Notes under the pieces: generated by a model | Seen by the model: the letters and a program-made list of their open reading frames with translations, nothing else | Databases searched by the model: none | Told to the model about the DNA's origin: nothing | Assembly (NCBI GenBank): GCA_035632975.1 | Contig: DASQFV010000099.1 | Location: 1-44,873 of the forward strand | From: Nitrospiraceae bacterium | Lineage (GTDB): Bacteria; Nitrospirota; Nitrospiria; Nitrospirales; Nitrospiraceae | Reading direction: 5' to 3' | DNA length: 44,873 nt | Translations under genes and position numbers: made by a program | Part shown: positions 2,975-44,803 of the stretch, one piece after another | Layout of the letters: each line of letters starts with the position of its first letter | Position numbering within the stretch: position 1 is the first letter of the stretch

Positions 2975-3013
2975 CGACGGCTGTCCTATCGGCGCGGGGA
3001 GAAATAAAAAAGA

Positions 3014-4270
3014 ATGACCAAAGATGTCAATAATCAAAATCTTCGGGTCTTGGTGATCGACGACAACACGTCTATCCACGAGGACTTTCGCAAAATCCTT
3101 CAAGCGAAAGCCGGGGAGGAAAATTTCGATCAAGCGCGGGCGAAGTTGTTCGGCGATTTGCCGCTCTCGCGGGAGATCGAACGGTTCGAACTGGACTGCG
3201 CCGATCAGGGGCAAGCCGCTCTCACCTTGGTGCAGCAGGCACGGAATGAAGGCCGACCCTATGCGGTGGCGTTTGTTGATATGAGGATGCCGCCCGGGTG
3301 GGACGGGCTGGAAACCATCGAACACCTCTGGGAGGCGGACGCAGAGCTACAGGTGGTCATCTGTACGGCATACTCCGACCACCCGTGGAACGAAATCAAA
3401 GAACGTGTCGGCCGAACCGACAAGTTGTTGATCCTCCAGAAACCGTTTAACGGCATTGAAGTGTTGCAGCTGGCCACCGCACTCTGTCGAAAATGGGATC
3501 TTGCACGTGAAGTGGCAGGACAACTGCGTGAATTGAGCATTCAGGTCGACCACCGTACGGTAGAACTCCAGGGCGCGAACGAGCAACTGACACAATCCAA
3601 TGCGACCTTGGTGCGAACCGTGGCGAATCTTGAGGCGGTTCAAGCGGAAGTTTTACTGCAAAATGACGAACTGGGGCGTCTCGCGTCTCGAGATCCACTC
3701 ACCGGCTGCCTCAACCGTCGCGCCTTTTACGCGCAATTTGAGACGGCGTTGGCCGAAAGTCTAAAACATGACATCGAACTGAGCTGCCTGATGGTGGACA
3801 TCGACAAATTTAAACGCATTAACGACCAATTTGGACATGCGGTGGGGGATCAAGCCATCCAAGCGGTAGCCAACTGCCTGAGCGCTGGGCTGCGGTTGAT
3901 GGACATCATCGGCCGCTATGGAGGAGAGGAATTCTGTTTGCTGTTTCCACGCACCACGCTGGCTGAAGCCGCTAATCTGGCGGAACGTCTTCGGATTCGT
4001 GTCGAAGCAGAGGCTGGAGTTAGGATGCGAATGGCATCCCGCGTGGTGATCACAATGAGTTGCGGCATTTCATCTACGGCGGGTGGAGTGCGGACGCCTT
4101 TGGAGCTGATCGATCACGCGGACAAGGCTCTCTATGCCGCGAAGGAGGGTGGGCGGAACTGTGTCATGGCTCTTAATCCGATTATCGCCGGGGCGAACGC
4201 TCCCGATCAGGTTGAGCCGCAAGTCAGGCGGATCACTCCACGGGTGTCGAGCCCACAGGCTCCCCGGTAA
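3014..4270 (+). CDS. Response regulator with GGDEF output (diguanylate cyclase, PleD/WspR-like) with I-site
   Basis: The REC domain is paralogous to the preceding gene (VLVIDDN, AFVDMRMPPGWDG, ICTAYSD, LQKPF). A coiled coil follows, then a GGDEF domain with RLMDIIGRYGGEEF, i.e. RxxD five residues before GGEEF. Confidence 0.92.
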   Translation: MTKDVNNQNLRVLVIDDNTSIHEDFRKILQAKAGEENFDQARAKLFGDLPLSREIERFELDCADQGQAALTLVQQARNEGRPYAVAFVDMRMPPGWDGLETIEHLWEADAELQVVICTAYSDHPWNEIKERVGRTDKLLILQKPFNGIEVLQLATALCRKWDLAREVAGQLRELSIQVDHRTVELQGANEQLTQSNATLVRTVANLEAVQAEVLLQNDELGRLASRDPLTGCLNRRAFYAQFETALAESLKHDIELSCLMVDIDKFKRINDQFGHAVGDQAIQAVANCLSAGLRLMDIIGRYGGEEFCLLFPRTTLAEAANLAERLRIRVEAEAGVRMRMASRVVITMSCGISSTAGGVRTPLELIDHADKALYAAKEGGRNCVMALNPIIAGANAPDQVEPQVRRITPRVSSPQAPR

Positions 4271-4312
4271 AGGAGGTCTTGAGTAGAAAGGTCACTGTCG
4301 GACAGGCTCCCT

Positions 4313-4552
4313 AGCCCGCATTATTCATGAAAGTTCGTTGCGAAAGCGTGCAGACGTGAAGCGAGATGGGCACTCGGAGGCCGGGGACTGGCTCTGCCGT
4401 CTGAGGCAGTGCCTCCCCCGCTCCTCAGGCGGGAACAGGTACCAAGAAGAAGGGTACCTGTCCCCAACAGTATGTCGAAGGGCTGAACGGCGAGACCGCC
4501 CGCCACAGCCGCGTATCCGCACTGGCAGCAGAAGCCTCATAAATCATGCGGG
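4313..4552 (+). repeat. Repeat family A, copy 1 (about 240 bp, non-coding, imperfect terminal inverted repeats, MITE-like)
   Basis: Near-identical by eye to 7908-8147 in the opposite orientation and to the half copy at 10388-10540. Termini are AGCCCGCATTATTCATG ... CATAAATCATGCGGG. A central hairpin GGGAACAGGTACC-loop-GGTACCTGTCCCC is present. Confidence 0.85.
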
Positions 4553-4570
4553 ATAGAGGGAACAGATGAT

Positions 4571-5089
4571 ATGGGGCGCATCCTGAGCTGTCCGCGGTGC
4601 CAGAAGGACGGCCTCTTGCGGTCTCAACCGCAATCGCCACGCGAGCACCTCGCCTCCTTCCTCTTCGTGGCGCCATTCCGCTGTCCATCGTGCAGTCACC
4701 GTTTTCTGGCGTCCCATCTTTGGCTGGACCATTCCACGCATCCGATTGATCGCCGCGAACACCTCCGGATTCCCGTGCGACTCTATCTCTCGTTCTCCGG
4801 GGGCAAGGTCCGTGGTGAGGGAACGGTGCTCGATCTCTCGATGGGAGGTTGTATCATCGAGAGCGAGACCCAGGTTCATACGAACGACATCTTCTATCTG
4901 CAATTGTCGATTAGTGAAGGTGAACTCCCTCTTGAAGTGGCCGCGATGGTCCGTTCCGTGAGCGCTCGCGGTATCGCCTTCAAGTTCCTTCGAGCCGCCC
5001 AAGAGAACAAGCGCCTGCTCGCCTTTCTCCAGGCCCAGACACCGAATCAGCCGGACAAATCCTCGCTCAACGCCGGTGTCGCCGCCTAA
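4571..5089 (+). CDS. PilZ-domain c-di-GMP receptor with N-terminal CxxC...CxxC zinc-ribbon
   Basis: Carries CPRC...CPSC, then the PilZ signatures RREHLR (RxxxR) and DLSMGG (DxSxxG). Confidence 0.8.
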   Translation: MGRILSCPRCQKDGLLRSQPQSPREHLASFLFVAPFRCPSCSHRFLASHLWLDHSTHPIDRREHLRIPVRLYLSFSGGKVRGEGTVLDLSMGGCIIESETQVHTNDIFYLQLSISEGELPLEVAAMVRSVSARGIAFKFLRAAQENKRLLAFLQAQTPNQPDKSSLNAGVAA

Positions 5090-5222
5090 GCAGGCCGGCG
5101 AATCCATTACCCCATCGTCAACAGAATAGGGTTCGACGCGACCAGCGGGTTGCTGAGAAACCATTACGGCACAGCAGAGCTTCGATGTCCTGTACGTCTT
5201 GGACAAGAAGAGGACGCCTCCG

Positions 5223-5344
5223 CAGGATGCTCAAAAAGGTCGTCCAGCAAGGCCGCAGCGAGCGAAGAGGCGAGGTGCACGCTTCGGTACGCTGAGCTTC
5301 TGAGCGAAGCGAGAACGAAGCGGGCGGACTTTTTCAGCATCCTG
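5223..5344 (-). repeat. Repeat family B, copy 1 (about 122 bp palindromic element)
   Basis: Its reverse complement aligns with 30583-30704 and 44602-44725. Termini CAGGATGCTGAAAAAGTCCGCC ... GGACGACCTTTTTGAGCATCCTG pair as a long hairpin. It ends 1 nt from the stop codon of the minus-strand gene at 5345. Confidence 0.85.
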
Positions 5345-5650
5345 TTAGATCGGAGTTTCCCAGGCAGAAGGAAGCGGGTGGTTGTTGACCAGTTCCTGGT
5401 GTGCGGCAAGATCATAGGGTTCAATGGTGAGGTCGTGCTCATTGAGCGGCTCCGGGCAGGTAGGGGAACAGAGGTACGTGCGATACGATTCGGCCTTCTC
5501 CTTCGTGGCGAACCGGCACAGCCCATATTCCGGCATCTCAGATGAGGGATACCAAAACGCCAGCTCAATCGCACTCCCCTGGTAGATGCCTAGGGTGCGG
5601 TGTTTGATCTGAAACCCGCCGGGCAAATGTGAAGAAGATTCAAGTGACAT
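5345..5650 (-). CDS. Hypothetical protein
   Basis: The ORF has no recognisable motif. The internal ATG at 5650 is preceded by GGAGG. The longer start at 5689 would nearly abut the divergent lemA gene. Confidence 0.45.
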   Translation of the reverse strand: MSLESSSHLPGGFQIKHRTLGIYQGSAIELAFWYPSSEMPEYGLCRFATKEKAESYRTYLCSPTCPEPLNEHDLTIEPYDLAAHQELVNNHPLPSAWETPI

Positions 5651-7258: not shown

Positions 7259-7907
7259 CAGGCTGGAGTTGACCGCTGAAGAACGAGAGCAGATCCGGCT
7301 GGCCATACGGGCGGCGGAGCGGCGGACGAAGGCAGAAATCGTTCCGATGATTGTGGCGCGCTCGGGGCTGTATCGCGAGGTCCGGCATTGGGTCGGTCTC
7401 GGACTCGCGCTCTTGGTGCTCACCATTCTGCTCACGATTGAATCGCACTGGCTCCCGTGGGGTTGGCATGCTTCGAACGCGGCCTGGCTCCTGCTTTCGA
7501 CGCTGGTGGCGTACGGATGTGGCGTGTGGCTCGGGACCCTGTGGCCGGTCATTCGTCTCGGCGCCTCAGTAGCGCGGATGCGGCACAAAGTAAAGCTCAG
7601 AGCCGAACACGCGTTTTCTCAACATGCCGTGTCGCACACGCGGGAGCGCACGGGCGTGCTCATCATGCTGTCGATTCTGGAACGACAGATCTACGTGCTG
7701 CCGGATCGTTCGCTGGATGGTCTGGCCTCACGTGATCATTGGGCGCAGGTGGTCCAGGCTGCTGTCGATCGGTTACAGTGTGGCGATATCGTCGGCGGGC
7801 TCTGCCAGGGAATCGAACGATGCGGCCTGCTGCTTGCCGACATCTGTCCCGGTCGTCCGGGTGACAACCCGAACGAATTGCCGGACGAATTGATTCAGGA
7901 GCCATAA
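7245..7907 (+). CDS. TPM-domain membrane protein, third member of the LemA-TPM-TPM triad
   Basis: LTAEEREQIRLAIRAAERRTKAEIVPMIVARS, then TM helices, then TGVLIMLSILERQIYVLPD. The GTG at 7245 overlaps the upstream stop. The 7089 start in the ORF track lies inside the upstream gene. Confidence 0.7.
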   Translation: MEIGNRLELTAEEREQIRLAIRAAERRTKAEIVPMIVARSGLYREVRHWVGLGLALLVLTILLTIESHWLPWGWHASNAAWLLLSTLVAYGCGVWLGTLWPVIRLGASVARMRHKVKLRAEHAFSQHAVSHTRERTGVLIMLSILERQIYVLPDRSLDGLASRDHWAQVVQAAVDRLQCGDIVGGLCQGIERCGLLLADICPGRPGDNPNELPDELIQEP

Positions 7908-8147
7908 CCCGCATGATTCATGAAGCTTCTGCTGTAAGCACGGATACGCGGCTGCGACGGGCAGTCTCTCCGTTCAGCCCTTCGACATACTGTTGGGGAC
8001 TGGTATCGTTCTTCTTGGTACCTGTGCCCGCCTGAGGAGCGGGATAGGCACTGCCGAAGACGGCAGAGCCAGTCCCTGACCTACGAGTGCCCGTCTTGCT
8101 TCGCGTCTGCACGCTTTCGCGACGAACCGTCATGAATAATGCGGGCT
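7908..8147 (-). repeat. Repeat family A, copy 2 (inverted relative to copy 1)
   Basis: The reverse complement matches 4313-4552 along its whole length. It begins immediately after the TAA stop at 7905-7907. Confidence 0.85.
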
Positions 8148-8198
8148 AACCGTCCTCTTGATAGACTGCCCGGCGTTGTTCCGCTAGAATCCCGATTC

Positions 8199-9816: not shown

Positions 9817-10389
9817 ATGGGCAAGAGACACCCTTCACCAGAACGCCTCACGCCTGACGCCTCACGCTTCACGGTCTGCGTCTTCCGTACGCCCTGGGGC
9901 TGGATGGGTGTATCCGAAACGACGAAAGGGATCGACGCGGTGGTGTTGCCCAAGGCGTCGCGACAGGCCGTGCTGTCCGAGTTGCAAGCGACCTCAGCCG
10001 CGCGGCTGGACGCCCAGGTCTCTTCACGATTGCGAGAGGCGCGGACACAACTGACCGACTATCTGGCCGGGACGCGCAGGTCCTTCGATCTGTCGCTGGA
10101 CCTCTCTCGAGGGACCAGTTTCCAGCAGAAGGTCTGGCGGACCCTTCGACGTGTCTCATACGGCCAGCTTCAATCCTATCAATGGGTGGCTGTCCGTGTT
10201 GGAGGCAGACAGTATGCCCGTGCCGTCGGCAATGCCGTGGGGGCGAATCCGATGCCGATCGTGATTCCTTGCCATCGAATTGTGGCGCAGGATACGTCGC
10301 TCGGCGGATTCTCAGGCGGCTTGCCTACGAAACGAAAACTGCTCACTCTCGAAGGAACCCTGGCGGAGCTTCGACCGGGACGATCCTAG
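9817..10389 (+). CDS. ogt: Methylated-DNA--protein-cysteine methyltransferase
   Basis: PIVIPCHRIV active-site motif (PCHR) and YGQLQSYQWVA...VGNAVGANP. Confidence 0.9.
   Translation: MGKRHPSPERLTPDASRFTVCVFRTPWGWMGVSETTKGIDAVVLPKASRQAVLSELQATSAARLDAQVSSRLREARTQLTDYLAGTRRSFDLSLDLSRGTSFQQKVWRTLRRVSYGQLQSYQWVAVRVGGRQYARAVGNAVGANPMPIVIPCHRIVAQDTSLGGFSGGLPTKRKLLTLEGTLAELRPGRS
9846..9874 (+). repeat. Tandem heptamer repeat (CCTCACG CCTGACG CCTCACG CTTCACG)
   Basis: Four consecutive 7-nt units, 30 nt into the ogt reading frame. The same motif family occurs at 27871, 30327, 39005 and 40591. Confidence 0.7.
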
Positions 10390-10540
10390 CCCGCATCATT
10401 CATGCAGCTTCTGCTGCAAGCGTGGATACGCGGCTGTGCCGGGCAGTCTCGCCGTGCATCCCTTCGACATACTGTTGGGGACTGGCGCCCTTCTTCCTGG
10501 TGCCTGCCCCCGTCCGAGGAGTGAGACAGGCGCTAGACTA
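10388..10540 (-). repeat. Repeat family A, truncated half copy
   Basis: Matches the first ~150 nt of 7908-8147 in the same orientation, then diverges. It starts within the TAG stop of ogt. Confidence 0.75.
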
Positions 10541-11283: not shown

Positions 11284-12212
11284 CAATTTCCCGTCCTCTC
11301 ATTGTAGCCCACGGAGGTGCCGGTCTCCGACGATTGACTCCGGCGCAGGCCACCTGTCTGGCCGATGCACTCGTCATCGGCTATTCCATTCTTGAGCAGG
11401 GCCGACCCGCAGTCATCGCCGTCGAATGTACGATCGGTCTCCTGGAGCAATCAGGGCTGTTCAATGCGGGACGAGGAGCGAATTGTCAGCTGGATGGGGT
11501 GCAACGGATGGATGCCGCGATCATGGAAGGGGCGCACCTCGAAGCTGGAGCCGTTGCCTCGATCGAAGGAATCGTGCATCCGATTACGGCGGCCAGATTG
11601 GTCATGGAAGACACGAGTCATGTCTTGCTCGTGGGACCTCCGGCCACGCGGTTTGCTCAGCACGGCCAACTTGAACAGCTACCGAAAGCGCGATCGCCTC
11701 GCCGGATTTCCGGTCGATCTACTCGTGCTTCAACGGTCGCAGCGCAGACGATTCATCTCTATCGAACGATGCTGAAATCTAAGCGGACACAGAAGGACTG
11801 GTCCGGGACCGTCGGCGCTGTCGCCTTGGATCGGTCCGGGACCGTGGCGGCAGGGGCCTCTACCGGAGGCATCGATTCGATGTTGCCAGGGCGAGTTGGC
11901 GACAGCCCGCTCATCGGCTGTGGTGTCTACGCGGACAATCAGAGTGGTGCTGTGTCGATGACGGGAATCGGCGAAGGCATCGTCCGCCTTGTAATCGCCA
12001 AGAGCATCTGCGATCGTCTAGGTACGGGGAAGAGTCCTGCGGTCGCCGCTCGAGAGGTGTTGCGTTTGCTCGTGTCTCGGGTCCGTGGGTCGGCTGGGGC
12101 CTTAGTCCTCTCGCCGGACGGGCGATTTGCCATCAGGCATGTGACACCTCATATGGCTGCCGGTTGGTGGAACGGGACCGGCCAGCCGACCGTTCGAGGA
12201 CAATTTCCATGA
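11280..12212 (+). CDS. iaaA: Isoaspartyl peptidase / L-asparaginase (Ntn hydrolase family)
   Basis: HGGAG near the N-terminus, NAGRGA, and the autoprocessing site GTVGAVALD. The start codon is TTG. Confidence 0.85.
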   Translation: MTISRPLIVAHGGAGLRRLTPAQATCLADALVIGYSILEQGRPAVIAVECTIGLLEQSGLFNAGRGANCQLDGVQRMDAAIMEGAHLEAGAVASIEGIVHPITAARLVMEDTSHVLLVGPPATRFAQHGQLEQLPKARSPRRISGRSTRASTVAAQTIHLYRTMLKSKRTQKDWSGTVGAVALDRSGTVAAGASTGGIDSMLPGRVGDSPLIGCGVYADNQSGAVSMTGIGEGIVRLVIAKSICDRLGTGKSPAVAAREVLRLLVSRVRGSAGALVLSPDGRFAIRHVTPHMAAGWWNGTGQPTVRGQFP

Positions 12213-19576: not shown

Positions 19577-20059
19577 CTAGGTTGTGGTTGAGCGAATGCG
19601 TTGGATCAGCGATGTGGTGGAGACGTCGGGGACCAAAGGAATGGTACGGACGACTCCGCCGCGCGCTTCGACGATCTCGCGGCCGACGATGCGTTCCACC
19701 GCCCAATCTCCGCCTTTGACGAGGACATCCGGCTGCAATGCGGCGATCAGGCCCTGGGGGTCCGGTTCATCGAACAGGATCACATAATCGACACAGCCGA
19801 GCGCAGCGACCACTTCCGCTCGCTGCGCTTCCGAGACGATCGGCCGATCCGGTGCCTTGTTCAAACTCCGGACGGACGCGTCGCTGTTGACGGCGACGAC
19901 AAGCAGGTCGCCCAGGTCTTTCGCGGCCCGGAGGTAGCGCGTATGGCCCACGTGCATGAGATCAAAACAGCCGTTCGTGAACACGATACGTTTCCCTTGG
20001 GTCCGCGCCGCTTGTAGAAGTAGGACGAGCTGGTCTCTGGTCACAACTTTCACGGACAT
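19577..20059 (-). CDS. rfaE2: D-glycero-beta-D-manno-heptose 1-phosphate adenylyltransferase (RfaE/HldE domain II only)
   Basis: Cytidylyltransferase motif FTNGCFDLMHVGHTRYL. The 160-aa size corresponds to a stand-alone domain II. Confidence 0.85.
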   Translation of the reverse strand: MSVKVVTRDQLVLLLQAARTQGKRIVFTNGCFDLMHVGHTRYLRAAKDLGDLLVVAVNSDASVRSLNKAPDRPIVSEAQRAEVVAALGCVDYVILFDEPDPQGLIAALQPDVLVKGGDWAVERIVGREIVEARGGVVRTIPLVPDVSTTSLIQRIRSTTT

Positions 20060-22030: not shown

Positions 22031-23023
22031 TTACCCCAATTCTTCGTGCACCGCCGCGGCCAGCAACGGCACCATGATTTCGTGGTGGCCGATCAGAGAG
22101 TAACCTTTACCACCCTTCTGGGTCGGCCGACGCACCACGTTTGTGAGCGGGCGGTAGTGAGCCAAGAAGTCCATGTCCACGGTCGTAATGTCGGTCAGAT
22201 CATGACCAAGATTGCGTCCCAGTGACACCGCTTTGAGGAAGACTTCCGGCAAAATGACGGCAGAGCCGAGATTGAGATACACGCCCCCCTCCATCCCTGA
22301 CACGACGGCAGCAAGCCGTCGGAAGTCCAGCAGCGAGGTCGCGCCAATGGCGGATCCGTCCGCGGCAGGATGCATATGGATGATGTCGGTACCGATGGCG
22401 ACGTGCACGGTCACCGGAATACCGAGCCGTGCTCCGGTCGCCAGGATGCTCGTTTCGCGATGGGGAAACTGCCCCTGACGTCGGTTGATGTAGTGACCGA
22501 CGGATTCGCCGAGCCCCTCGCGATCGTGGGCCCCGCGGGCGATCGCCTCGTTCAGCATGCGGCCGGTTTCTTCCGCCATCCCGAAGCGTCCCTCGTCAAT
22601 CTCCGCGTCGACTTCCTCAGACGTGTGCCCCATGAGCGCCAATTCGAAATCGTGAATGATCCCGGCGCCGTTCATGGCCACGGCCGACACGATTCCTTGC
22701 CGCATGAGATCCACGAGAATCGGACTCAATCCGACTTTGACGACGTGTGCGCCGATTCCCACGATAACCGGTCGGCCTTTGCGATGGGCCCTTGCAACGG
22801 CTTTGGCGACCGCGCGCAAAGTTTTCACGCCGAGGATATCCGGCAGGGAGCGATAGAATTGGCTGAAGCTGTCCCCACGGTGCCAGGGGCGAGCACAGTC
22901 TGAGACGCGGACCTTGCTGTACCGTTTTTTGAGCGGATAGGTCGTGAGATCCGTCACGTTGATCGGCGGGATCAGGCTCGGAGCCGTGACAGGGGGCCGC
23001 TGCCGGTCAGGAGGCTTTGCCAA
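22031..23023 (-). CDS. Deoxyhypusine synthase-like family protein (putative)
   Basis: Pattern VIVGIGAHVVKVGLSPILVDLMRQGIVSAVAMNGAGIIHDFE ... SILATGARLGIPVTVHVAIGTDIIH ... GVYLNLGSAVILPE resembles the DHS Rossmann core, recalled from memory. The TTG at 23023 is preceded by GAGGAA. The 23203 start would overlap gmhA by about 200 nt. Confidence 0.5.
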   Translation of the reverse strand: MAKPPDRQRPPVTAPSLIPPINVTDLTTYPLKKRYSKVRVSDCARPWHRGDSFSQFYRSLPDILGVKTLRAVAKAVARAHRKGRPVIVGIGAHVVKVGLSPILVDLMRQGIVSAVAMNGAGIIHDFELALMGHTSEEVDAEIDEGRFGMAEETGRMLNEAIARGAHDREGLGESVGHYINRRQGQFPHRETSILATGARLGIPVTVHVAIGTDIIHMHPAADGSAIGATSLLDFRRLAAVVSGMEGGVYLNLGSAVILPEVFLKAVSLGRNLGHDLTDITTVDMDFLAHYRPLTNVVRRPTQKGGKGYSLIGHHEIMVPLLAAAVHEELG

Positions 23024-23585
23024 GGAGCTGTTCCTCGATGAGTTCACACAGGACGTGGCCGAGCGTGATGTGACTTTCTTGAATGCGGGCCGTGACCGTT
23101 GAGGGCACGACGAACAGATATTCCACCAGACCAGCCAGTTTCCCGCCGGTCCCCCCGGTCCAGCCAATGGTAGTGAGGCCACAAGCCCGCGCGGCGTCCA
23201 CACCCTTCAACACGTTGGGTGAATTGCCGCTGGTGCTGATGGCAATGGCGATGTCGCCTTTTTGTCCATGGGCGCGAACTTGGCGGGCAAAGAGTTCGTC
23301 GAAGCCGTAGTCGTTGGCGATGGACGTGATGGCGGCAATGTCGGTGGCCAGGGCGATGGCCGGGAGCGGGGCACGCTCCCGTTTATACCGCCCGACGAAC
23401 TCGGCGGCGAGGTGGGCCGCATCTGTGGCACTGCCTCCATTGCCGAACAATAAGATTTTGTGTCCTTGGCGAAAGGCTGTGGCGATCAGCTTCACGACTT
23501 GCACGATGCGATCGGCATGCTCGTGCGCGAACTGTTGCTTGACGGTCGTGCTTTCGGAAAACGCGCTGAGTACACGCTCTTTCAT
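23007..23585 (-). CDS. gmhA: D-sedoheptulose 7-phosphate isomerase (SIS domain)
   Basis: ILLFGNGGSATDAAHLAAEF, AISTSGNSPNV and IGWTG. Confidence 0.9.
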   Translation of the reverse strand: MKERVLSAFSESTTVKQQFAHEHADRIVQVVKLIATAFRQGHKILLFGNGGSATDAAHLAAEFVGRYKRERAPLPAIALATDIAAITSIANDYGFDELFARQVRAHGQKGDIAIAISTSGNSPNVLKGVDAARACGLTTIGWTGGTGGKLAGLVEYLFVVPSTVTARIQESHITLGHVLCELIEEQLLGKAS

Positions 23586-23697
23586 GGGTAGCGATTCTAG
23601 GCAACCTGCTGTCACCTGTCAAACGTGATTCGCAGGAGTGAATTGATCGCTCAATGTGGCGATGACTCATAGGGCGGAAGAAAACACTTCAGTTCCT

Positions 23698-23735
23698 GAG
23701 AGCGAAGCGAGAACGAAGCCGGAAGGCTTTTACGC
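23698..23735 (-). repeat. Repeat family B, partial (one arm only)
   Basis: CTGAGAGCGAAGCGAGAACGAAGCCGGAAGGCTTTT matches the 5296-5335 arm of copy B1. It lies in the 5' extension of ORF 23656, which argues for the downstream start at 23761. Confidence 0.6.
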
Positions 23736-23760
23736 CGTCCTATGTTATAGTCCGCGCGTC

Positions 23761-25017
23761 ATGGCGCACGACCAACCAGTCAAAGCCTTAGTGATCGCGC
23801 TCACCGACCATGTGGCGACGGCGGTCTATTCGATTAATCGTCTGCAACCGGATTCGCTCTGCTTCGTGCTGCCTGAAGGGGCGAAATCGCTCGTAGAGTC
23901 CGAGGTCCAGCCGAAGATCGAGCACATGCCTAGACGGTGGGACTGGGTGGTGATGGCGAAGACCTGCGAATTTGTCGGCTGTTATCAGACGCTCGCTAGG
24001 ACACTCCCGGAGATGTTGCGTACATGGGATGTGCAGTCAGGCGAGCTCGTCGTCGATGTGACGGGGGCCACACCAGCCATGGCGGGTGCACTGACGTTGG
24101 TCACCATGCCGATGAGTTCGCGGATCGTGTCGCTCGTGCCGGCGCAAGAGGGACAGGAGGGGGACAGGATTGATATCGCCGGACAGCCGTTCGTATGGAC
24201 GCAGGGGAATCCGTGGGATGAGGCGGCATCTGTCTCACGTCGCGAGGGCTGTGAGCTGTTCAACCGGAGATTGTTTGCCGCAGCGGCGAAGCTGTTCCGC
24301 GAGGTCGAAGCACGGGTGAGCGGCGGGCAGAAACCGCTCTATCGTGCCTTCGGAGACCTGGCTGATGGCTACGATCTGTGGGAGCGATTTCACTATCGTC
24401 AAGCCTGGGAGAAACTCAGGATTGCCGTGAAGGCCTTCGAGATGGCGTCCCTGTGGGGCGGACTACCAGGACTCACGTCGCTGTTACCAGCTATCAAAGC
24501 GAATGCGGGATTCTTGGAAAAGCTCGTTCTCGATCCTGCTCCCGTGAAAGACATGCAAGCCCCCGATCTCCTAGCCCATGCCGGACGGCGACTGCATGGC
24601 TTGCACGATCCGGAAGCGGCCATGGTCTCGCTCGTTCGTGCCCTCGAAGCCTTTGCCCAACGACAACTGTTCAAGCAATTCACGATCAAGACCTGGGACG
24701 TGCAGCTGGAGCAATTGCCGCAGGCGCTACGAGAAACCTGTCGGTCCTGTTGGCTGGAAGATCTCGACGGCAAGTACAAATTGCCGTTGCAGGCGCAGTT
24801 TCGGGCACTGGCCGCATTGGGCGACCAGATGGGCCAAGCCTTTTTGCGCGAGTGGCCGACGATGAAGCCCCTGCTCGACGCCGCCAACCATGCTGTCCTC
24901 GGCCACGGTTTCGAGCCGGTCAAAGCCGAGCGGGTGCAGCAGCTGTACGAAGTTGTCATCAAGCTATCGGGCGTCAGTGAGACATCGTTGCCCAAGTTTC
25001 CAATGCTGAGCCTCTAA
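23761..25017 (+). CDS. Orphan CARF-domain protein with C-terminal HEPN-like helical domain (TIGR02710/Csx1-Csm6-like architecture)
   Basis: N-terminal Rossmann-like region ending in VDVTGATPAMAGAL (compare CARF D-x-T-G-G-T-K-x-M). C-terminal AGRRLHGLHDPEAAMVSLVRALEAFAQRQL and AANHAVLGHGFEPV (compare R-N-x-S-x-L-A-H-G). Confidence 0.6.
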   Translation: MAHDQPVKALVIALTDHVATAVYSINRLQPDSLCFVLPEGAKSLVESEVQPKIEHMPRRWDWVVMAKTCEFVGCYQTLARTLPEMLRTWDVQSGELVVDVTGATPAMAGALTLVTMPMSSRIVSLVPAQEGQEGDRIDIAGQPFVWTQGNPWDEAASVSRREGCELFNRRLFAAAAKLFREVEARVSGGQKPLYRAFGDLADGYDLWERFHYRQAWEKLRIAVKAFEMASLWGGLPGLTSLLPAIKANAGFLEKLVLDPAPVKDMQAPDLLAHAGRRLHGLHDPEAAMVSLVRALEAFAQRQLFKQFTIKTWDVQLEQLPQALRETCRSCWLEDLDGKYKLPLQAQFRALAALGDQMGQAFLREWPTMKPLLDAANHAVLGHGFEPVKAERVQQLYEVVIKLSGVSETSLPKFPMLSL

Positions 25018-25089
25018 CCCGGCGTGCTCGGGGAAATCTTGAGGACACTGAACATGGTTCAGAATGTCGTCCAAGGCGGTCAAGCGAGA

Positions 25090-25491
25090 TCACTTTTTGC
25101 CGCACGCAATTTTCCATACAGATTGACCCATACTGCCTGGCATGACTAGTACCCACTTACCTACTTGTGAGTTGGTATAAACTACCGTTCCACTTCCCAT
25201 ATTGCCCGAGAATTCCTTGAGCGCAAGCACCCGGCTGCGCTCCTCTGCGCAGTCGAATTCCCATTGTTCCTTGGCAGTCAAAAACCTGATACCCCCCACG
25301 GTCTGTACAGTCTTGTAGTCGTAGAATTGCCACATCTTCACCAGATTACTGTTGCGGCGTATGGTGGCTGGATCCACGTATACAGTCTTTCCTGCTTCGT
25401 CGCTCTCACCAACTTTTATCCACTCCGCATACGCCGGACTACTACTCAACACCAGGAGAGTTATCGCGATCAGTCGTTTCATGTGCCTCAC
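25090..25491 (-). CDS. Secreted Adhesin_E-like (surface-adhesin protein E family) small protein
   Basis: Signal peptide MKRLIAITLLVLSSSPAYA, W..V, YVDPATIRR, KMWQFYDY, FDCAEERSR, and the C-terminal Cys in WKIACGKK. Confidence 0.65.
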   Translation of the reverse strand: MRHMKRLIAITLLVLSSSPAYAEWIKVGESDEAGKTVYVDPATIRRNSNLVKMWQFYDYKTVQTVGGIRFLTAKEQWEFDCAEERSRVLALKEFSGNMGSGTVVYTNSQVGKWVLVMPGSMGQSVWKIACGKK

Positions 25492-25517
25492 AGTGACCAG
25501 TTAGGTTGACCGCGCGA

Positions 25518-25909
25518 TCACTTGTTGCCGCAGGCGACTTTCCACAGAGTTTGGTCAAGACTACCTGGTGAAACTGGTAGTCTTGCGTTTGCCTGAAGCG
25601 CGATCAAGCAAATTGCCACTTCCTAATATTGCCCGAAAAATACAGAACCGCAAACCCCCTAATGCGCTGTTCGGCACAGTCATATTCCATTTGCGCCTTT
25701 GCCGACAAATATGAGACGCCCTCCTTGGTTTGTGTTGTCTTGAAGTCGAACAGTACCTCCATCTTCACCAGATCCTCTTCGCGGCGCATGCTGGCTGGAG
25801 CCGCGTATGCGCCCATTCCTGCTTCGACTTTGCCACCAACCGCTACCCAATCGGCATACGCAGGACTGCTACTCAGGAAGAGAGGGATGATTAGGAGCAG
25901 TCGTTTCAT
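25518..25909 (-). pseudogene. Frameshifted paralogue of the Adhesin_E-like gene
   Basis: The annotated ORF stops after ...FSGNIRKWQFA. The missing C-terminus appears in two other frames downstream: GSGNLLDRASGKRKTT, then PGSLDQTLWKVACGNK-stop ending at 25518. Confidence 0.6.
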
Positions 25910-26331
25910 TAGGTCGTCTCTGTAATAGATCGTGACTACTGCGGGTGGAATTGCGACAGTGTGCTCCCGTTTGAGGGGGCGGTCAAATGAAACTCGGAGC
26001 GGTTTCGCGGCACCTTGTGAGTGGCATGGTCTGATCGCTACGGATGATTGCGAAGAATATCGGCGTGTCTACCCCGAGTGTGGCGCGGTCGTTACCGTAA
26101 GGGGACGGTCAAATGAAACGTGCGAGGCAAGTTGAACGCTGTGGAAGTTTGGCAGAGTGAGATGAAGGAAAGTTGTGTTTGCGGAGGGGGCGACGATCAC
26201 TACTGCACAGTTGTTTTCCAAACAACGGTGTATTACCGTTGAACTGTCTCAGATAGGAAGATGAAAATGGCATGAACAGTTGTAGTTAGTTATAAGCCGA
26301 CAATTGCAACATTCAAGGCATTGACAATACA

Positions 26332-26712
26332 ATGGAAATCAGAATCTATTATGAAGATACCGATTGCGGAGGGGTGGTGTACTACGGCAATTATCTGAAA
26401 TATTTCGAGCGGGCGCGGACGCAGTATTTCGAAGAGCGAGGGTTATCGGTGGCCGGACTCATGAAAGAAGGCACGGTGTTTGTCGTGGTACACGCAGAAG
26501 TGGATTACCGATCTCCAGCCCGCTATGGCGACCGGCTGATCATCGAGACGGTCGTCTCCGACATGACGGCAGCCTCCTTCACGTTTTCGCACGTGGTCCG
26601 AGAACGGGAGAGCCGGCGTGTGGTCGTTGAAGGATCGGCCAGGTTGGCGGCAACGGATGGAAATGGGAAAGTGAAGCGACTCGACAAGGCGATGAGTGCC
26701 GTATTAAAATAA
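26332..26712 (+). CDS. ybgC: YbgC/4HBT-family acyl-CoA thioesterase
   Basis: IRIYYEDTDCGGVVYYGNYLKYFERAR hotdog-fold signature. Confidence 0.85.
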   Translation: MEIRIYYEDTDCGGVVYYGNYLKYFERARTQYFEERGLSVAGLMKEGTVFVVVHAEVDYRSPARYGDRLIIETVVSDMTAASFTFSHVVRERESRRVVVEGSARLAATDGNGKVKRLDKAMSAVLK

Positions 26713-26736
26713 TCGTCGTCAATAAGGAGTCATGAA

Positions 26737-26886
26737 ATGGAAACGGAATGGGTGGGTTATGGAATGTCGCTGGGAAGCTGGCTCATCATGGCCGGCATGG
26801 CGATCGGTGTAGTCGTACTCGGCTGGTGGTTTTTCTTGCCAAACCCGATGGCTAAAGACAGGAAGGACAGGAATAAGAAGCCCTAA
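26737..26886 (+). CDS. Small (49 aa) single-pass membrane protein, absent from the ORF track
   Basis: AAGGAG at 26724-26729 lies 7 nt before the ATG at 26737. The product is METEWVGYGMSLGSWLIMAGMAIGVVVLGWWFFLPNPMAKDRKDRNKKP, a hydrophobic core followed by a basic tail. Confidence 0.5.
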   Translation: METEWVGYGMSLGSWLIMAGMAIGVVVLGWWFFLPNPMAKDRKDRNKKP

Positions 26887-27017
26887 CCCGACTATAAGTA
26901 TTCTCCTCCACCTTGGTCTTCGCCATCGCCAGAGTCATCCAACGTAACGGGGGTTCACCGGTTGCCGGAACGCGCAGCGCGGTGGATACCCAATGGCAAC
27001 GAAGTTGAGCGGTCGGT

Positions 27018-30582: not shown

Positions 30583-30704
30583 CAGGATGTTGAAAGCCGC
30601 CGCCGGCTGCGTTCTCGCATCGAGCAAGGCCTCAACGTACTCCGAGTACGCCTCGGCCTTGCTCTCCGCTGCGGCCTTGCCGGACGACAGCTTTAAACAC
30701 CCTG
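30583..30704 (+). repeat. Repeat family B, copy 2
   Basis: Aligns with 44602-44725 and with the reverse complement of 5223-5344. It begins 1 nt after the TAG stop at 30579-30581. Confidence 0.85.
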
Positions 30705-32670: not shown

Positions 32671-33219
32671 TTAGGTCCGTCTTGAAGGAGTCCTACGCCG
32701 TATTCCCAGCTCCCGAGTCGGTTCCGCATTGATTTCTTTCATCCCCCAGTGGGCTCGCTTGGCTTTTTCCCGCTCCGATACAGCGAACAGCACGTGAAAG
32801 GGCGTTGCTCGTCGCGCGCCCATTTCCGCTTGTTCGTTTCCCCAGGCTTCTCCCGCATCCCTCAAGATCTCAAGGAAAGTTTCATACTCTGCTTCGTCGT
32901 CGGATAATACATGGGCCGCATCGGTGATGAGCAGAATATAGCCCTTGGCCGGCAGCCATTCCAGATCGGCCAGACATTCCTCCAAGGCGTCCCAGTTGTG
33001 GCCGAAGTAGTCGGGGAACTCCAATGCCCGTGCGAATTCCGCAAACAGATTTGCCGGCGTCCTGCAGTGACGGCCCTGGATGACCTTCAGCGACAACCCG
33101 GTCGGAGGGCGCACCAGCGATTCGGCGCGCCGCCCGGTTGTGACCATCAGCAATGAGGTCCATGGGGCCTTCGTCGATTGGAGATAGGCGGTCAATGGCA
33201 CTGTGTGTTTCGGAGTCAT
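32671..33219 (-). CDS. Barstar-family ribonuclease inhibitor-like protein with N- and C-terminal extensions
   Basis: NLFAEFARALEFPDYFGHNWDALEECLADLEWL matches the barstar core (fP.YfG.NwDAl.dcL). Confidence 0.7.
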   Translation of the reverse strand: MTPKHTVPLTAYLQSTKAPWTSLLMVTTGRRAESLVRPPTGLSLKVIQGRHCRTPANLFAEFARALEFPDYFGHNWDALEECLADLEWLPAKGYILLITDAAHVLSDDEAEYETFLEILRDAGEAWGNEQAEMGARRATPFHVLFAVSEREKAKRAHWGMKEINAEPTRELGIRRRTPSRRT

Positions 33220-33592
33220 GGTGTCTCACTCAATGGCATGAACGTTCGGGCCCTGCGGACTGAACGGACGGGACAGAGGCAGACGGTACAGTCGGTTCAG
33301 ACGACGAGTATTCCATAAATCTTCCAAGTTCCATCCATAGTTTCGCGTTCGTATTTCGGGGCGAGGCAGCACGGTACGAACCCTAGCACGCACGATCTGG
33401 GAGGATCAACGGGCGTGAAAGAAGTGGGCGTTCGAGGTCGGGAATTGTTGCTATCGCTCATTCGCCAGCGTAGCATCCAATGTATGCATCCTGTTGAGGA
33501 TGTTCGCCAGTCCGGCATCTCCCGGCCACCATACGGGCAGATCGGGCAGGCACGATGCTGACTTACGCTAGGACGAGCCAACGAGGTACAGA

Positions 33593-35917
33593 TTGGAATC
33601 CGCAGTGGACCGGCTTGAGTTTGTGACAGTCGAAGGGCTTCTGGCCTACGGAGAGATGCTGGCGCGTCGTACCGCCGGTGAGGGAATTGCGCTCCCACCT
33701 ATCCCGACTTCCTCAATCGATCGACCACAGCGAACTCGCGACGCCATGGAGAAGATCAGGGCGTTTGTGCGCCGTGCATCAGGGGGCTTTCCCGGGGCGG
33801 AGGAGTATCGGGCTACCCGTCGCGCGGTGATCGAAGAGGGTTGCCGGGGCGATGAACTGGTGTTCTTTGCCGCCTGGAATGCTCTTCTCGCGGCAGGCGA
33901 GTTGACCCCGCTCTTCCGCGTGCCGATCGGGTCAGTGCAGAAGCCGGCGCATCGCCGGCCGGTGGCTATCGTGCCGCGCGCGCAACTGACGCCACAGTTG
34001 GTCGAGGATCGTATCGTGCTGGACTTGGGCGAGGATCGGTTTTGGCTTTTGCCGCGCGATTTAACCGGTCGCACGCTCCTGTTCACGATGCGTCATGGTA
34101 TCTCACGCGTGGAGAGCGGCACCTATCGAGTCGGGCGCCGCCTCGCGAACGTGTTGGATCCTGAGCGAGGCGTCCCCAAAGCCGACGCAGTCGGTGCAGC
34201 CCTGGCTCGGATGCTGGGCGTGGTCGGGCAACAATTGGACTTCCTGCGCATTGACAACTACCTTGATCCGCGCACCTTCGTTCATCTGGTGAGCCAGAGC
34301 CCCAATACGCGGCAACTGTATGAGCGGGTGATCGCGAAGCTGATGCAGGCGCAAGCGCACCATGCTGAGGCACTCTCACCCGCCTGTGATCCCTCATTAG
34401 ACTCCCAGGATTTCGGATGGGTGACAGGTCTGGAGAAGAAGGTGGAAGCCGAGGAGGCCGCAAAGGCATTCGGGGTGGACGTGCAGACTGCCAAGCGCCT
34501 GATCAAACATCCCCTCTACAGCTACCCGGGCGGACATTCCTTCTTCGATGTCTATGTGGATATTGTCGATGGCTTCCGCCGGTTGGGTCATTCTCACCAG
34601 GGGAAGGCCGTGTGTGTGTACAGCCACAGCTCCACGCTCCGGGCGCTCATGATTTATCTCGATCCTCGTCCCTTTCGCGAAGCCTTCACCGAGTTTGGCG
34701 AATATAAGGAGGGACAGGATAACGTCGTTCTGCTGACCTACGAACAGGGACTCTTATCCGGCTATTCCACCGCCGTGGGTCTGTCAGCGCGGGAACGGGC
34801 GGCGCGGGAGACCTGGGTGAAGGTCGAGCGTGAACGCAGAGACCGGATCACGCTCAAGCCCCGACAGATCAAGCGGATCGTGGCATTGGTTTCGGGTGGC
34901 GATTTCGCCGGTGCCGGCGCCGCGTTGAAAGAACTGCGCGTGACAGGACACCGGTTTGGCCTGGAAGTCTACTTCGCCCGGCACGGGTTCTTAGGTCTGG
35001 CCAACAACTGGATCGAAGCGGTGACTGAGGACGATACCCGCGGTATGGGCAGCCATGCGAGCAGTCCGATTGGGAGCAGCCGCTTCGAAGATTTCAAGGA
35101 CGAGCAAGTGCAGCAGGCCACCATGCGGCATCTCAAGCCATACATGGAAGACGGCGCCTTAGTGGTCATTGGTGGGGACGGGAGTCTGCGAGGAGCGCGG
35201 GCGCTCTACGAAGGATTTGGGGTCCAGGCAGTAGGGTTGCCAGGCACGATCGATAATAATCTCGCGGGGACGACCTCCCTGGGTTTTCATTCGGCCGTGT
35301 CTCTTGCGAATCAATCCATCGAGTCGCTGAAGGCCACTAGTTCCGCCATGGGCAGCGTCTTTTTCGTCGAGATTATGGGGGCGGGATCCGGCCATCTCGC
35401 CCTCGCCTGTGCGTATCAGGCCAGAGCTGAAGGCCTCTTGGTCAACGAGCATCCCGATCCCGACGCGTATATCGACGACTTCATCCTGGGCACGCTCAAC
35501 CGCACCTTGGGCGTCGCGAACAAAAGCCATCTGTTTGTGGTGGCAGAACAGACGCCCCATCGCCATCACCCCGATGGCGGCGTGCGCGGTCTTGTCGAGT
35601 ATGTCGCCAGCACACTTACCACGTGGCCACAGTTTCAGGCACGCCCCGGTGAATATTGCCTCGCCCCTGCAACCAAAGCCACGATTCTCGGGCACACGTT
35701 ACGGGGAGCGCCCCCGACCCCCGAGGACAAGACCATCGGACAAGATCTGGCCTATGAAGCGATTCGCCGTCTCGTCAAGGAGCCGGAGCGGGTGGTCGGA
35801 TGCATGTTGGCCTATCGCGGGCCAGGCACTATCGAGGCGATCCCACTCCACGCTGTGGCACCAAAGCAGTTCGACTGGGAGATCTTCGCCCGAATGCACG
35901 GAAGCGAGCTTCCGTAG
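33593..35917 (+). CDS. Three-part fusion: unknown N-domain, histidine phosphatase (PGAM-like), divergent phosphofructokinase-like domain
   Basis: RHG motif LLFTMRHGISRVES and the second His region VYSHSSTLRAL. PFK-family motifs are SGGDFAGAGAA, VVIGGDGSLRGA, LPGTIDNNLAGT and VEIMGAGSGHLAL. The TTG start is uncertain. Confidence 0.7.
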   Translation: MESAVDRLEFVTVEGLLAYGEMLARRTAGEGIALPPIPTSSIDRPQRTRDAMEKIRAFVRRASGGFPGAEEYRATRRAVIEEGCRGDELVFFAAWNALLAAGELTPLFRVPIGSVQKPAHRRPVAIVPRAQLTPQLVEDRIVLDLGEDRFWLLPRDLTGRTLLFTMRHGISRVESGTYRVGRRLANVLDPERGVPKADAVGAALARMLGVVGQQLDFLRIDNYLDPRTFVHLVSQSPNTRQLYERVIAKLMQAQAHHAEALSPACDPSLDSQDFGWVTGLEKKVEAEEAAKAFGVDVQTAKRLIKHPLYSYPGGHSFFDVYVDIVDGFRRLGHSHQGKAVCVYSHSSTLRALMIYLDPRPFREAFTEFGEYKEGQDNVVLLTYEQGLLSGYSTAVGLSARERAARETWVKVERERRDRITLKPRQIKRIVALVSGGDFAGAGAALKELRVTGHRFGLEVYFARHGFLGLANNWIEAVTEDDTRGMGSHASSPIGSSRFEDFKDEQVQQATMRHLKPYMEDGALVVIGGDGSLRGARALYEGFGVQAVGLPGTIDNNLAGTTSLGFHSAVSLANQSIESLKATSSAMGSVFFVEIMGAGSGHLALACAYQARAEGLLVNEHPDPDAYIDDFILGTLNRTLGVANKSHLFVVAEQTPHRHHPDGGVRGLVEYVASTLTTWPQFQARPGEYCLAPATKATILGHTLRGAPPTPEDKTIGQDLAYEAIRRLVKEPERVVGCMLAYRGPGTIEAIPLHAVAPKQFDWEIFARMHGSELP

Positions 35918-43626: not shown

Positions 43627-44601
43627 ATGAATCTCGATCAACGGGATGACGACCAGCCGATCCGCAGCGGAGAGCTGCCGGTTGTGGCGAGGCCATCTGA
43701 GGATCCCAGTGCTCTCTCCACGGACGACGAATTCGAGGAGACCCCGTTCTCGAAATGGATCCTGCCCACCAGCCTCTTTGTGGCGACGATCTTCACCACA
43801 CTGTGGGCCGGGGCCTATCAGGCCTACGACGGACCGATCCATGGACCGGTGAACTTTCTGCTCGAACACCCCGAGACGCTCTGGCGCGGGATTCCCTTCG
43901 CTGCCACACTCCTGCTCATTCTGGTGACCCATGAATTCGGGCACTATGTGCTCTCCCGCATCCACCGAGTTCCGGCGTCGCTGCCGTTGTTCATCCCGGG
44001 CCCTCCGTATTTCATCGGCACATTCGGGGCGATCATTCGCCTGCGCGGGCCGATCTTGAATCGGCGCGCGCTGTTCGACATCGGCGTGTCTGGTCCGCTT
44101 GCCGGCTTCATCGTTGCGGTGGTAGCACTGGTCATCGGTCTGAACATGTCAACGGTCGTTGATCGGACGGCGACCCATGGATTGCAGTTGGGCGAGCCGT
44201 TGCTCTTGCAGTTCATCTCCTGGCTGGTCGTCGGATCCATCCCTCCTCAGGCTGACATCGTCTTGCACCCCATCGGGTTCGCCGCCTGGTTCGGTCTGTT
44301 TGTGACGTCACTGAATCTCCTTCCCATCGGACAACTTGACGGCGGGCATGTGGCGTATGCCCTGTGGGGCTCACGCCAACGCACGATGGCGTTTATCATG
44401 GTGCCGCTGTTGATCGCGCTGGGATTCGTGGGCTGGCCCGGTTGGTGGCTCTGGGCCTTCATGGCCGGACTATGGGGTTTCGGGCACCCCCCGGTGCGCG
44501 ATCTTCACCTGCCGTTGGGCCGAGAGCGCATCGTTGTCGGATGGATTGCATTTGCCGTGTTTGTGCTGACCTTTGCGCCAGTTCCTTTCTCCTTCCACTA
44601 A
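43627..44601 (+). CDS. M50 family site-2 protease (membrane metalloprotease)
   Basis: HExxH as THEFGHYV inside a TM helix, plus NLLPIGQLDGGHV. A TTG at 43618 is an alternative start. Confidence 0.85.
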   Translation: MNLDQRDDDQPIRSGELPVVARPSEDPSALSTDDEFEETPFSKWILPTSLFVATIFTTLWAGAYQAYDGPIHGPVNFLLEHPETLWRGIPFAATLLLILVTHEFGHYVLSRIHRVPASLPLFIPGPPYFIGTFGAIIRLRGPILNRRALFDIGVSGPLAGFIVAVVALVIGLNMSTVVDRTATHGLQLGEPLLLQFISWLVVGSIPPQADIVLHPIGFAAWFGLFVTSLNLLPIGQLDGGHVAYALWGSRQRTMAFIMVPLLIALGFVGWPGWWLWAFMAGLWGFGHPPVRDLHLPLGRERIVVGWIAFAVFVLTFAPVPFSFH

Positions 44602-44725
44602 CAAGCTGCTGAAACAGTCCGCCAGCTTCGTTCTCGCATCGGTCAGACCCTCAACGTACCCCTGAGGGTACGCCTCGGGTCCTCACTCGCTGCGGCCTTG
44701 CTGGACGGTCTGTTTGAGCAGCTTG
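44602..44725 (+). repeat. Repeat family B, copy 3
   Basis: Begins at the nucleotide after the TAA stop at 44599-44601. It aligns with 30583-30704. Confidence 0.85.
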
Positions 44726-44803
44726 CAATCGGACTTCATACAGTGCCTGGCACAATCCGGAGATTTTCTTGTCCGATCGCACACTCCGCCCTACAGTGTG
44801 CCT

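Follow-up and report, generated by a model that had tools for sequence, protein, structure and literature searches.

The stretch from position 1 to 44,873 of contig DASQFV010000099.1, which is called the window in the following, carries on its forward strand a gene for a 418-amino acid protein that combines a CARF domain with a HEPN domain. Proteins of the Csm6/Csx1 type are regarded as switchable suicide ribonucleases (RNases) that act in type III CRISPR immunity. Here, we found a Csm6 scaffold that lacks residues of both the switch and the blade but is still under strong selection at one chromosomal site across the nitrite-oxidizing Nitrospiraceae, nitrifiers of global importance. All positions are those of the window, and residues are counted from the ATG at 23761. 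The gene and its domains are as follows:

23761-25017, + strand: coding sequence of the CARF/six-helix/HEPN protein, a Csm6/TIGR02710 homologue (stop codon 25015-25017)
23761-24195, + strand: CARF (Rossmann-like) domain, residues 1-145 (beta/alpha alternation up to residue 149 in the AlphaFold2 model; coverage by TIGR02710 and PADLOC)
24196-24468, + strand: six-helix (6H, 'HTH') linker domain, residues 146-236 (PF22205; helices in the AlphaFold2 model)
24469-25014, + strand: HEPN domain, residues 237-418 (PF09670)

The gene is part of a longer open reading frame (ORF) that spans positions 23656-25017 of the forward strand, and its true start is the ATG at 23761. For comparison, one genome per GTDB species was scanned; relatives were present in 161 genomes and 80 loci were fetched. 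An in-frame stop codon is located no more than 35 codons upstream of the ATG in 48 of 78 orthologous loci, and the database orthologues mostly comprise 417-420 amino acids. Because of these two observations we consider ATG 23761 the real start, as had been assumed in a preliminary description of this DNA. A 5'-extended ORF starting with GTG 23656 was rejected since most loci carry in-frame stops in this region. The amino acid conservation of the extension is only apparent and actually reflects nucleotide conservation of a repeat remnant and of the promoter, both of which are described below.

To assign the protein to a family, we compared it with profile libraries and with known structures. 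The NCBIfam model TIGR02710 ('CRISPR-associated CARF protein') scored 118.4 bits at a cut-off of 83.9 (E 3.5e-34) and aligned residues 20-402 with model positions 2-380 of 384. Two Pfam models exceeded their gathering scores, namely Csm6 HEPN (PF09670; E 8.7e-20, 71.4 bits, residues 268-402) and Csm6_6H (PF22205; E 9.4e-11, 42.1 bits, residues 159-221). The PADLOC model CARF1--CARF_HEPN was matched over 418 of 418 positions with 776 bits, and this full-length match means that a catalogue entry for the subfamily as a CARF-HEPN cluster already exists (PDLC01812). An AlphaFold2 model of the monomer, which was calculated from 64 clade sequences, was of high confidence (predicted local distance difference test, pLDDT, 92.1; predicted template modeling score, pTM, 0.85), and its sole internal low-confidence stretch comprises residues 380-382 in the L-G-H loop. 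When this model was searched with Foldseek, Csm6 of T. thermophilus gave the best matches (8JBC, 8JBB, 8JH1, 5FSH; E 1e-13 to 1e-11), and the next ones were Csm6 of E. italicus (EiCsm6) and Csm6' of S. thermophilus (StCsm6'). The top 16 matches were all Csm6 structures with some 420-460 aligned columns, and the E-values for the Csm6 proteins of these three species ranged from 1e-13 to 1e-9. A single-sequence phmmer search of the PDB yielded no match; the sequence profile of the clade reached the T. thermophilus enzyme (TtCsm6) with an E-value of 2e-7. Taken together, the profiles and the model characterize the protein as a member of the TIGR02710 (Thermus Csm6-type) family with the three-domain fold of CARF, six-helix and HEPN domains, and the earlier assignment of a CARF and a HEPN domain was thus borne out by hidden Markov models, AlphaFold and Foldseek.

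For the analysis of the functional motifs, a search of 1.84 billion cluster representatives was employed, which gave 1333 matches at E<=1e-3. Among the best 150 of these 1333 matches, 109 sequences were near-full-length and were aligned, and 103 of the 109 are canonical and served as reference set. In these canonical representatives motif I of the CARF domain reads S-V-G-G-[ST]-P-E-P, and its two Gly and the Ser/Thr are present in 101, 89 and 86 of the 103 sequences, respectively. Motif II is D-x-T-G-G-T-K-x-M (Lys in 102/103) and the HEPN motif is R-N-x-S-I-L-A-H-G (Arg 103/103, Asn 101/103, Ser 101/103, His 102/103), so that the consensus motifs quoted in the preliminary description agree with those of the reference set. 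The motif sequences that it quoted from the window protein itself were also found there. Alignment of the window protein with the canonical sequences indicated the following counterparts:

23803-23811, + strand: remnant of CARF motif I, T15-D16-H17 in place of G-G-S/T (preceded by A13-L)
24055-24081, + strand: altered CARF motif II, D99-V-T-G-A103-T-P105-A-M107 (Lys to Pro, G103 to Ala)
24883-24909, + strand: degenerate HEPN motif, A375-N-H-A378-V-L-G-H382-G383 (Arg and Ser lost, His kept)

It can be seen that the segment VDVTGATPAM, which had been proposed as CARF signature, has lost the ligand residues (A103, P105), as has motif I. The Ala at the position of the catalytic Arg was confirmed, but it has to be relocated by one residue: the site is A375 (nt 24883-24885; residue 410 when counted along the long ORF) and not the preceding A374 (nt 24880-24882), which is also an Ala. 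Among the 76 Nitrospira orthologues, A375 is conserved in 75 and H382 in all 76, and G383 and F384 are likewise invariant. The motif I loop is variable among these orthologues, whereas P105 of motif II is kept in 88% of the clade. Two variant motifs, D-L-T-G-A-T-P-A-M in the CARF domain and D-A-A-x-x-A-V-L-G-H-G-F in the HEPN domain, are conserved across Nitrospirales sequences at 61-77% identity.

The functional weight of these exchanges can be judged from mutagenesis data on TtCsm6. In the profile alignment R415, N416 and H422 of TtCsm6 fall on A375, N376 and H382 of the window protein, and T133, G135 and K137 on T101, A103 and P105. R415A, N416A or H422A exchange each abolished the RNase activity of TtCsm6 (PMC10897365). 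The K137A mutant completely lost binding of cyclic tetraadenylate (cA4), and T59A/S60A exchange abolished both cA4 cleavage and RNase activation (PMC10897365). Because of these mutagenesis data and the profile alignment, we conclude that residues for recognition of cyclic oligoadenylate (cOA) are missing in addition to the HEPN Arg. When aligned with the canonical sequences, the window protein shows none of the hallmarks of a cOA-activated effector (motif I G-G-S/T, motif II Lys, HEPN R-x(4-6)-H). Motif I follows strand beta1 and makes contact with the phosphate and the 2'-OH of cOA. The combination of motif I Ser/Thr and motif II Lys at the dimer pocket that marks CARF ring nucleases of the Crn1 type is also lacking. 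What we observed instead are the characteristics of a non-catalytic HEPN domain, namely a retained fold, a replaced catalytic Arg and purifying selection. The previous suggestion of a modified or inactivated RNase output pointed in the right direction.

No stop codons were found in 76 full-length orthologues (70-96% identity). The median ratio of nonsynonymous to synonymous substitution rates (dN/dS) relative to the window gene was 0.15 for the CARF, 0.09 for the 6H and 0.085 for the HEPN domain. Thus, CARF is the least and HEPN the most constrained domain, and these sequence data argue that the gene is under strong purifying selection and is not decaying. A position-by-position comparison of 195 sequences of the clade and the 103 canonical ones showed that 18 family-invariant positions are lost in the clade. 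Ten of them are located in the CARF domain, where the losses include G15, P20, S38, G103, K105, Y124 and R130; those in the HEPN domain include N273, D285/D286, R290, Y292, R375, S378 and A381. Conversely, there are 70 positions at which conservation reaches 95% or more in the clade but stays below 25% in canonical members. These clade-specific positions include seven Trp as well as K388 and R391, and clade-specific loops are present in the 6H domain (S187-G-G-Q-x-P192, W232-G-G-P-x-G237). The HEPN domain contributes a further element of this kind:

24739-24750, + strand: clade-specific C327-x-x-C330 in a HEPN insertion (at least 95% in the Nitrospirales clade, less than 25% in canonical members)

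Old constraints have been dropped and new ones have been gained, which is the pattern of neofunctionalization.

In a neighbor-joining tree based on numpy distances, the window protein and the six nearest 50%-identity clusters (P0121, P0123, P0125, P0128, P0130, P0133) formed one clade in 40 of 40 bootstraps, and this orphan clade is separate from the 103 canonical representatives. No cas genes were present in the contexts of the four clusters inspected (P0121, P0125, P0128, P0130) or in the window. The branch of P0130 lies close to the base; this cluster has retained R, H and K, and its gene follows a HATPase_c_2/DUF4325 gene. In P0128 the Arg is replaced by Cys and the His by Tyr; its gene overlaps an upstream PF04199 'cyclase' gene and has a Zn-dependent alcohol dehydrogenase gene downstream. 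The PF04199 protein we take to be of the kynurenine-formamidase type and not a nucleotide cyclase. The more distant clade members P0128 and P0130 (L089 9036-11992 and L083 8906-11224) both occupy non-CRISPR loci. P0121, which shares 47% identity, has lost the His too (G-G-G) and keeps the Nitrospira synteny, and P0133 carries a Tyr at the His position. Not every member of the clade needs the HEPN His. The tree, the gene contexts and the motifs of P0130 fit a single exit from CRISPR loci with loss of the catalytic residues afterwards.

A Pfam scan of 39 ORFs of the window (23.7 kb upstream and 19.9 kb downstream of the gene) did not reveal any cas gene, and no CRISPR-like array was found in the window. 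The only nucleotide cyclase encoded there is a response-regulator REC-GGDEF protein (3014-4267). These findings uphold the initial impression that a CRISPR-Cas context is missing in the window. As a possible signal source the GGDEF protein was rejected, since it is an ordinary response-regulator diguanylate cyclase with a PilZ partner of its own and is located 20 kb away. It belongs to a signaling cluster (186-5086) that consists of a PAS histidine kinase, a hybrid REC-HisKA protein, the REC-GGDEF diguanylate cyclase and a PilZ protein (4571-5086). A tblastn search of 1.44 Mb of related loci with 10-kb flanks, in which Cas6, Cas10, Csm2, Csm3 and Csm4-like proteins of type III-A (L085/L086) served as queries, yielded nothing, but this is a weak test because Cas10 diverges fast. 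In contrast to the window gene, the nearest canonical cluster (P0135/P0404; 30% identical, motifs intact), which was used as positive control, adjoins genes for Cas6, Cas10 (HD and palm), Csm2 and a RAMP protein (Csm3). CRISPR-Cas is patchy among cultured Nitrospira. Of two strains that may carry the orthologue, Nitrospira sp. ND1 possesses a system of type I-C (cas3, cas5, csd1, csd2, cas4, cas1, cas2), whereas N. japonica NJ1 lacks CRISPR-Cas (PMC5767232).

The closest protein matches (87-92% identity) are named from Nitrospira or from Nitrospirota metagenome-assembled genomes (MAGs), and the window is Nitrospira DNA. The 80 fetched loci are 70-96% identical and are titled Nitrospira, Nitrospiraceae, Nitrospirales or Nitrospirota, except for a few MAGs with another or no taxon. 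Their gene order is Mfd, rfaE-domain-II, DinB, SprT, GSU2086-family and gmhA-like SIS gene on one strand; the CARF-HEPN gene is divergent from these, and a YbgC/FadM-type thioesterase comes after it. Across the loci the identity of the CARF-HEPN protein follows that of its housekeeping neighbors, which indicates vertical descent. The immediate surroundings in the window are:

23007-23615, - strand: gmhA-like SIS-domain gene, divergent upstream neighbor (Pfam SIS_2)
25084-25909, - strand: two tandem Adhesin_E-like paralogues (PF16747), convergent with the CARF-HEPN gene and outside the conserved unit (Pfam)
26332-26712, + strand: YbgC/FadM-family acyl-CoA thioesterase, downstream partner on the same strand (TIGR00051, 94 bits at a cut-off of 68.7)

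Neighbors were counted only for loci with sufficient flanking sequence (64 or 57). The divergent SIS gene, which the phosphoheptose isomerase models of NCBIfam match below their cut-offs, lies within 3.5 kb in 62 of 64 loci. A same-strand thioesterase within 4.5 kb downstream was observed in 53 of 57, with gaps starting from 0 nt. Both neighbors persist in P0121 and P0125, which stem from a Nitrospiraceae MAG and share 46-47% identity, and also in Ca. N. bockiana. The occurrence of the thioesterase downstream in almost every relative is a hint that a functional tie between the two proteins may exist. However, insertions between the two genes, including the convergent genes of the window, indicate that co-transcription is not obligatory.

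In the window this insertion is the Adhesin_E-like islet, whose two paralogues show 68% nucleotide self-similarity and which is present in 17 of 57 loci. The GC content is 0.52 at 25001-27000 compared with about 0.60 upstream, and further downstream it rises gradually from 0.545 to 0.577; the A/T-richer islet reported before is therefore real. In the relative locus L016 a 126-amino acid ORF (11287-11667) is located between the CARF-HEPN gene and the thioesterase. At a guess from its sequence it encodes a four-helix-bundle protein, and its presence again points to an intergenic spot that tolerates insertions. On the other side of the gene, most relatives carry an NfeD and SPFH/Band_7 pair between the gmhA-like and the CARF-HEPN gene (L016 8119-9535, L088 8339-9772, L090 5460-6860). 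This pair is missing in the window (23616-23760), which identifies the intergenic region as an insertion/deletion site.

Within the conserved block, the rfaE-domain-II protein (heptose 1-phosphate adenylyltransferase; 19577-20056, - strand) scored above its NCBIfam cut-off, and the DinB, SprT and GSU2086-family (deoxyhypusine-synthase-like) genes separate it from the gmhA-like gene. A barstar-like gene (PF01337) is present at 32671-33216 (- strand). No barnase partner was detected for it in the window: the adjacent 133-amino acid ORF (33297-33698) has no Pfam match, and a tblastn search with the N. bockiana ribonuclease was negative. Next to the syntenic barstar gene of N. bockiana there is a PF00545 ribonuclease (L090 17086-18152).

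Directly upstream of the start codon we observed two overlapping elements:

23690-23745, + strand: 3' remnant of a dispersed repeat of about 125 nt ('family B'; 20-nt exact match and alignment)
23743-23751, + strand: extended -10-like element TGTTATAGT, 9 nt before the ATG, of the form TGnTATAGT

The hexamer TATAGT is kept at this distance almost throughout the 78 loci, even where protein identity is as low as 70%; two loci show TATGAT instead, and a few differ in the TGn prefix. A Shine-Dalgarno sequence is missing before ATG 23761. The conserved -10-like element only 9 nt from the ATG and the lack of a Shine-Dalgarno sequence suggest that the gene has an extended -10 promoter of its own and that it would be expressed as leaderless or near-leaderless mRNA. 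The idea that the gene forms its own transcription unit is in line with this element and with the convergent orientation of the next downstream gene in the window.

The repeat remnant, which had been noticed before, matches the 3' part of the family B repeat, and the 3' end of the repeat supplies the sequence just 5' of the -10 box. Full copies are located at 5222-5348, 30583-30704 and 44598-44726; they are intergenic and 72-81% identical to each other. Read in frame, the remnant mimics a conserved peptide, 'EARTKPEGFYAVLCYSPR', which accounts for the longer ORFs of 432-468 amino acids in many database entries. Another family of dispersed repeats, about 150-245 nt long (4312-4555, 7905-8148, 10386-10534; 83-89% identical, one copy inverted), occupies intergenic sites in the PilZ/TPM/MurJ/Ogt stretch. 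Apart from one trivial 24-nt repeat, the window gave no matches in the Rfam and tandem-repeat scans.

On the basis of these sequence comparisons, we consider it fairly probable that the protein is an exapted descendant of Csm6 that has lost both cOA sensing and RNA cleavage by the canonical mechanism and that likely has a non-catalytic binding or regulatory role. Its ancestor would have been an ancillary RNase of type III CRISPR systems of the TIGR02710/Thermus Csm6 kind. The lineage would have left the CRISPR loci and become fixed in the Nitrospiraceae chromosome, where the gene is inherited vertically. The cOA-binding and cOA-cleaving residues of the canonical relatives (motif I G-G-S/T, motif II Lys) as well as their HEPN Arg and Ser are replaced. 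Such a protein should be blind to cOA and incapable of canonical Arg/His-dependent RNA cleavage. It would most likely still form the homodimer of the Csm6 type and, by analogy with MtlR, Swt1 and MNT-fused HEPN domains, act on RNA or on a non-cOA ligand by binding or regulation. Its expression would proceed from the extended -10 promoter as a leaderless message. The new job of the Csm6 homologue is probably unrelated to defense.

Several findings do not fit easily into this scenario. All Nitrospira orthologues have H382 within a preserved G-H-G-F stretch, and just after it the basic residues K388 and R391 are newly conserved, so that a rewired active site is conceivable. Moreover, motif II still contains D99, T101, G102, T104 and M107, and its variant form D-L-T-G-A-T-P-A-M shows conservation of its own, so that the pocket may bind some ligand. 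The same observations, together with the fact that HEPN is the most constrained domain (dN/dS 0.085) and that HEPN families without the Arg but with the His are known (Anantharaman 2013), could be explained if the protein were a still-active stand-alone sensor and effector, in which a remodeled CARF domain binds another nucleotide or small ligand and the HEPN domain cuts via H382 and relocated basic residues (e.g., K388, R391, K369). We regard this as rather unlikely. The sister subclade P0121 has lost the His in spite of the same synteny, and P0128 and P0133 carry a Tyr there; thus, His-dependent catalysis is not a conserved property of the clade. R415A exchange alone kills TtCsm6 (PMC10897365), the motif I loop varies among orthologues, and a constant chromosomal RNase without visible regulator would burden the cell. 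The more specific proposal of the preliminary description, a stand-alone sensor of cyclic oligonucleotides, was not supported, since G-G-S/T of motif I and the Lys of motif II are lost and the equivalent K137A exchange eliminates cA4 binding. A different possibility, which we put forward only tentatively, is a domesticated housekeeping sensor or regulator that has kept the CARF-to-HEPN relay but has acquired a new pocket (D-L-T-G-A-T-P-A-M) and a new output surface. This surface might be formed by H382 with the gained K388/R391, by C327-x-x-C330 and by several gained Trp. The conserved YbgC-type thioesterase and gmhA-like neighbors would provide the ties of such a regulator, perhaps to acyl-CoA/envelope metabolism.

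Two further explanations carry much less weight than the loss of canonical activities through exaptation. Csm6 homology, the existence of trans-acting effectors in type III systems and the presence of CRISPR-Cas in some Nitrospira (PMC5767232) would be compatible with an ordinary cOA-activated accessory RNase of a distant type III CRISPR-Cas, CBASS-like or minimal-Cas10 system. This is very unlikely, however, since the residues for cOA binding and RNA cleavage, which are 98-100% conserved in canonical members, are replaced, and since a fixed housekeeping site in the 80 fetched loci speaks for vertical descent, whereas CRISPR-Cas is patchy and either of type I-C or absent. In addition, there is no cas gene in the window and none was detected by tblastn in the 10-kb flanks of related loci. 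The fixed housekeeping locus, vertical inheritance and variable CRISPR-Cas in the genus also leave without support the earlier idea that the protein responds to a signal whose source is encoded at another genomic site. That the gene is a decaying relic on its way to a pseudogene, its function being gone, might be concluded from the lost catalytic and ligand-binding motifs and from the weakest constraint on the CARF domain, but this is most improbable. The dN/dS is around 0.1 in all domains and the 76 orthologues (70-96% identity) are free of stops, and 70 clade-specific conserved positions, a conserved promoter element and a confident AlphaFold2 model speak against decay.

If a function is found for the exapted protein, it would be a clear case of a defense effector recruited for a cellular role and would show what the allosteric frame of CARF, 6H and HEPN domains does without cOA or RNA cleavage. 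For genome surveys there is a practical consequence. The gene is automatically annotated as 'CRISPR-associated' in Nitrospira genomes, and this label should not be taken in defense surveys to indicate a type III system or cOA signaling.

The family, the fold, the PADLOC profile, orphan CARF proteins and the concept of inactivated HEPN domains are already known. What seems to be new is a complete Csm6 scaffold that is disarmed in both domains and represents a fixed, syntenic chromosomal gene in Nitrospiraceae. In the literature covered, which does not extend to the CARF census of Makarova et al. (2020), we found no description of a full CARF/6H/HEPN Csm6 scaffold that is disarmed in both domains and chromosomal throughout a lineage, and nothing specific on Nitrospira in connection with CARF/HEPN/Cas10 or TIGR02710.

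Among known systems, the canonical type III-A TIGR02710 proteins (P0135/P0404) are the nearest intact relatives among the matches listed. They have the same domain order but keep G-G-[ST], D-x-T-G-G-T-K-x-M and R-N-x-S-I-L-A-H-G, none of which is intact in the window protein. The CARF ring nucleases Crn1 (Sso2081, Sis0455), which the CARF domain of TtCsm6 resembles (PMC10897365), gave a weak Foldseek match to the CARF fold of the window protein; these enzymes depend on the Ser/Thr of motif I and the Lys of motif II, neither of which is present here. Inactive HEPN domains of the MtlR family, of Swt1 and of MNT-fused proteins have lost Rx4-6H and kept the fold, as has the window protein (Anantharaman et al. 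2013). For these domains a non-catalytic binding or regulatory role was predicted, but they belong to other HEPN families and lack a CARF domain. The best match in both the sequence-profile and the Foldseek comparison is TtCsm6 (TTHB152; 5FSH, 8JBB, 8JBC, 8JH1), which has the same order of CARF, six-helix and HEPN domains and a similar length. D99, T104, M107, N150-P-W152, R276-R277, R293-x-x-E296, L380, H382 and G383 are common to the TtCsm6 family and the window protein. However, TtCsm6 binds and cleaves cA4 via T59/S60 and K137, where the window protein has T15/D16/H17 and P105, and it cuts RNA with R415/N416/H422, where the window protein has A375/N376/H382. Finally, TtCsm6 is encoded together with a type III CRISPR-Cas system, whereas the window gene resides in a housekeeping block and is vertically inherited.

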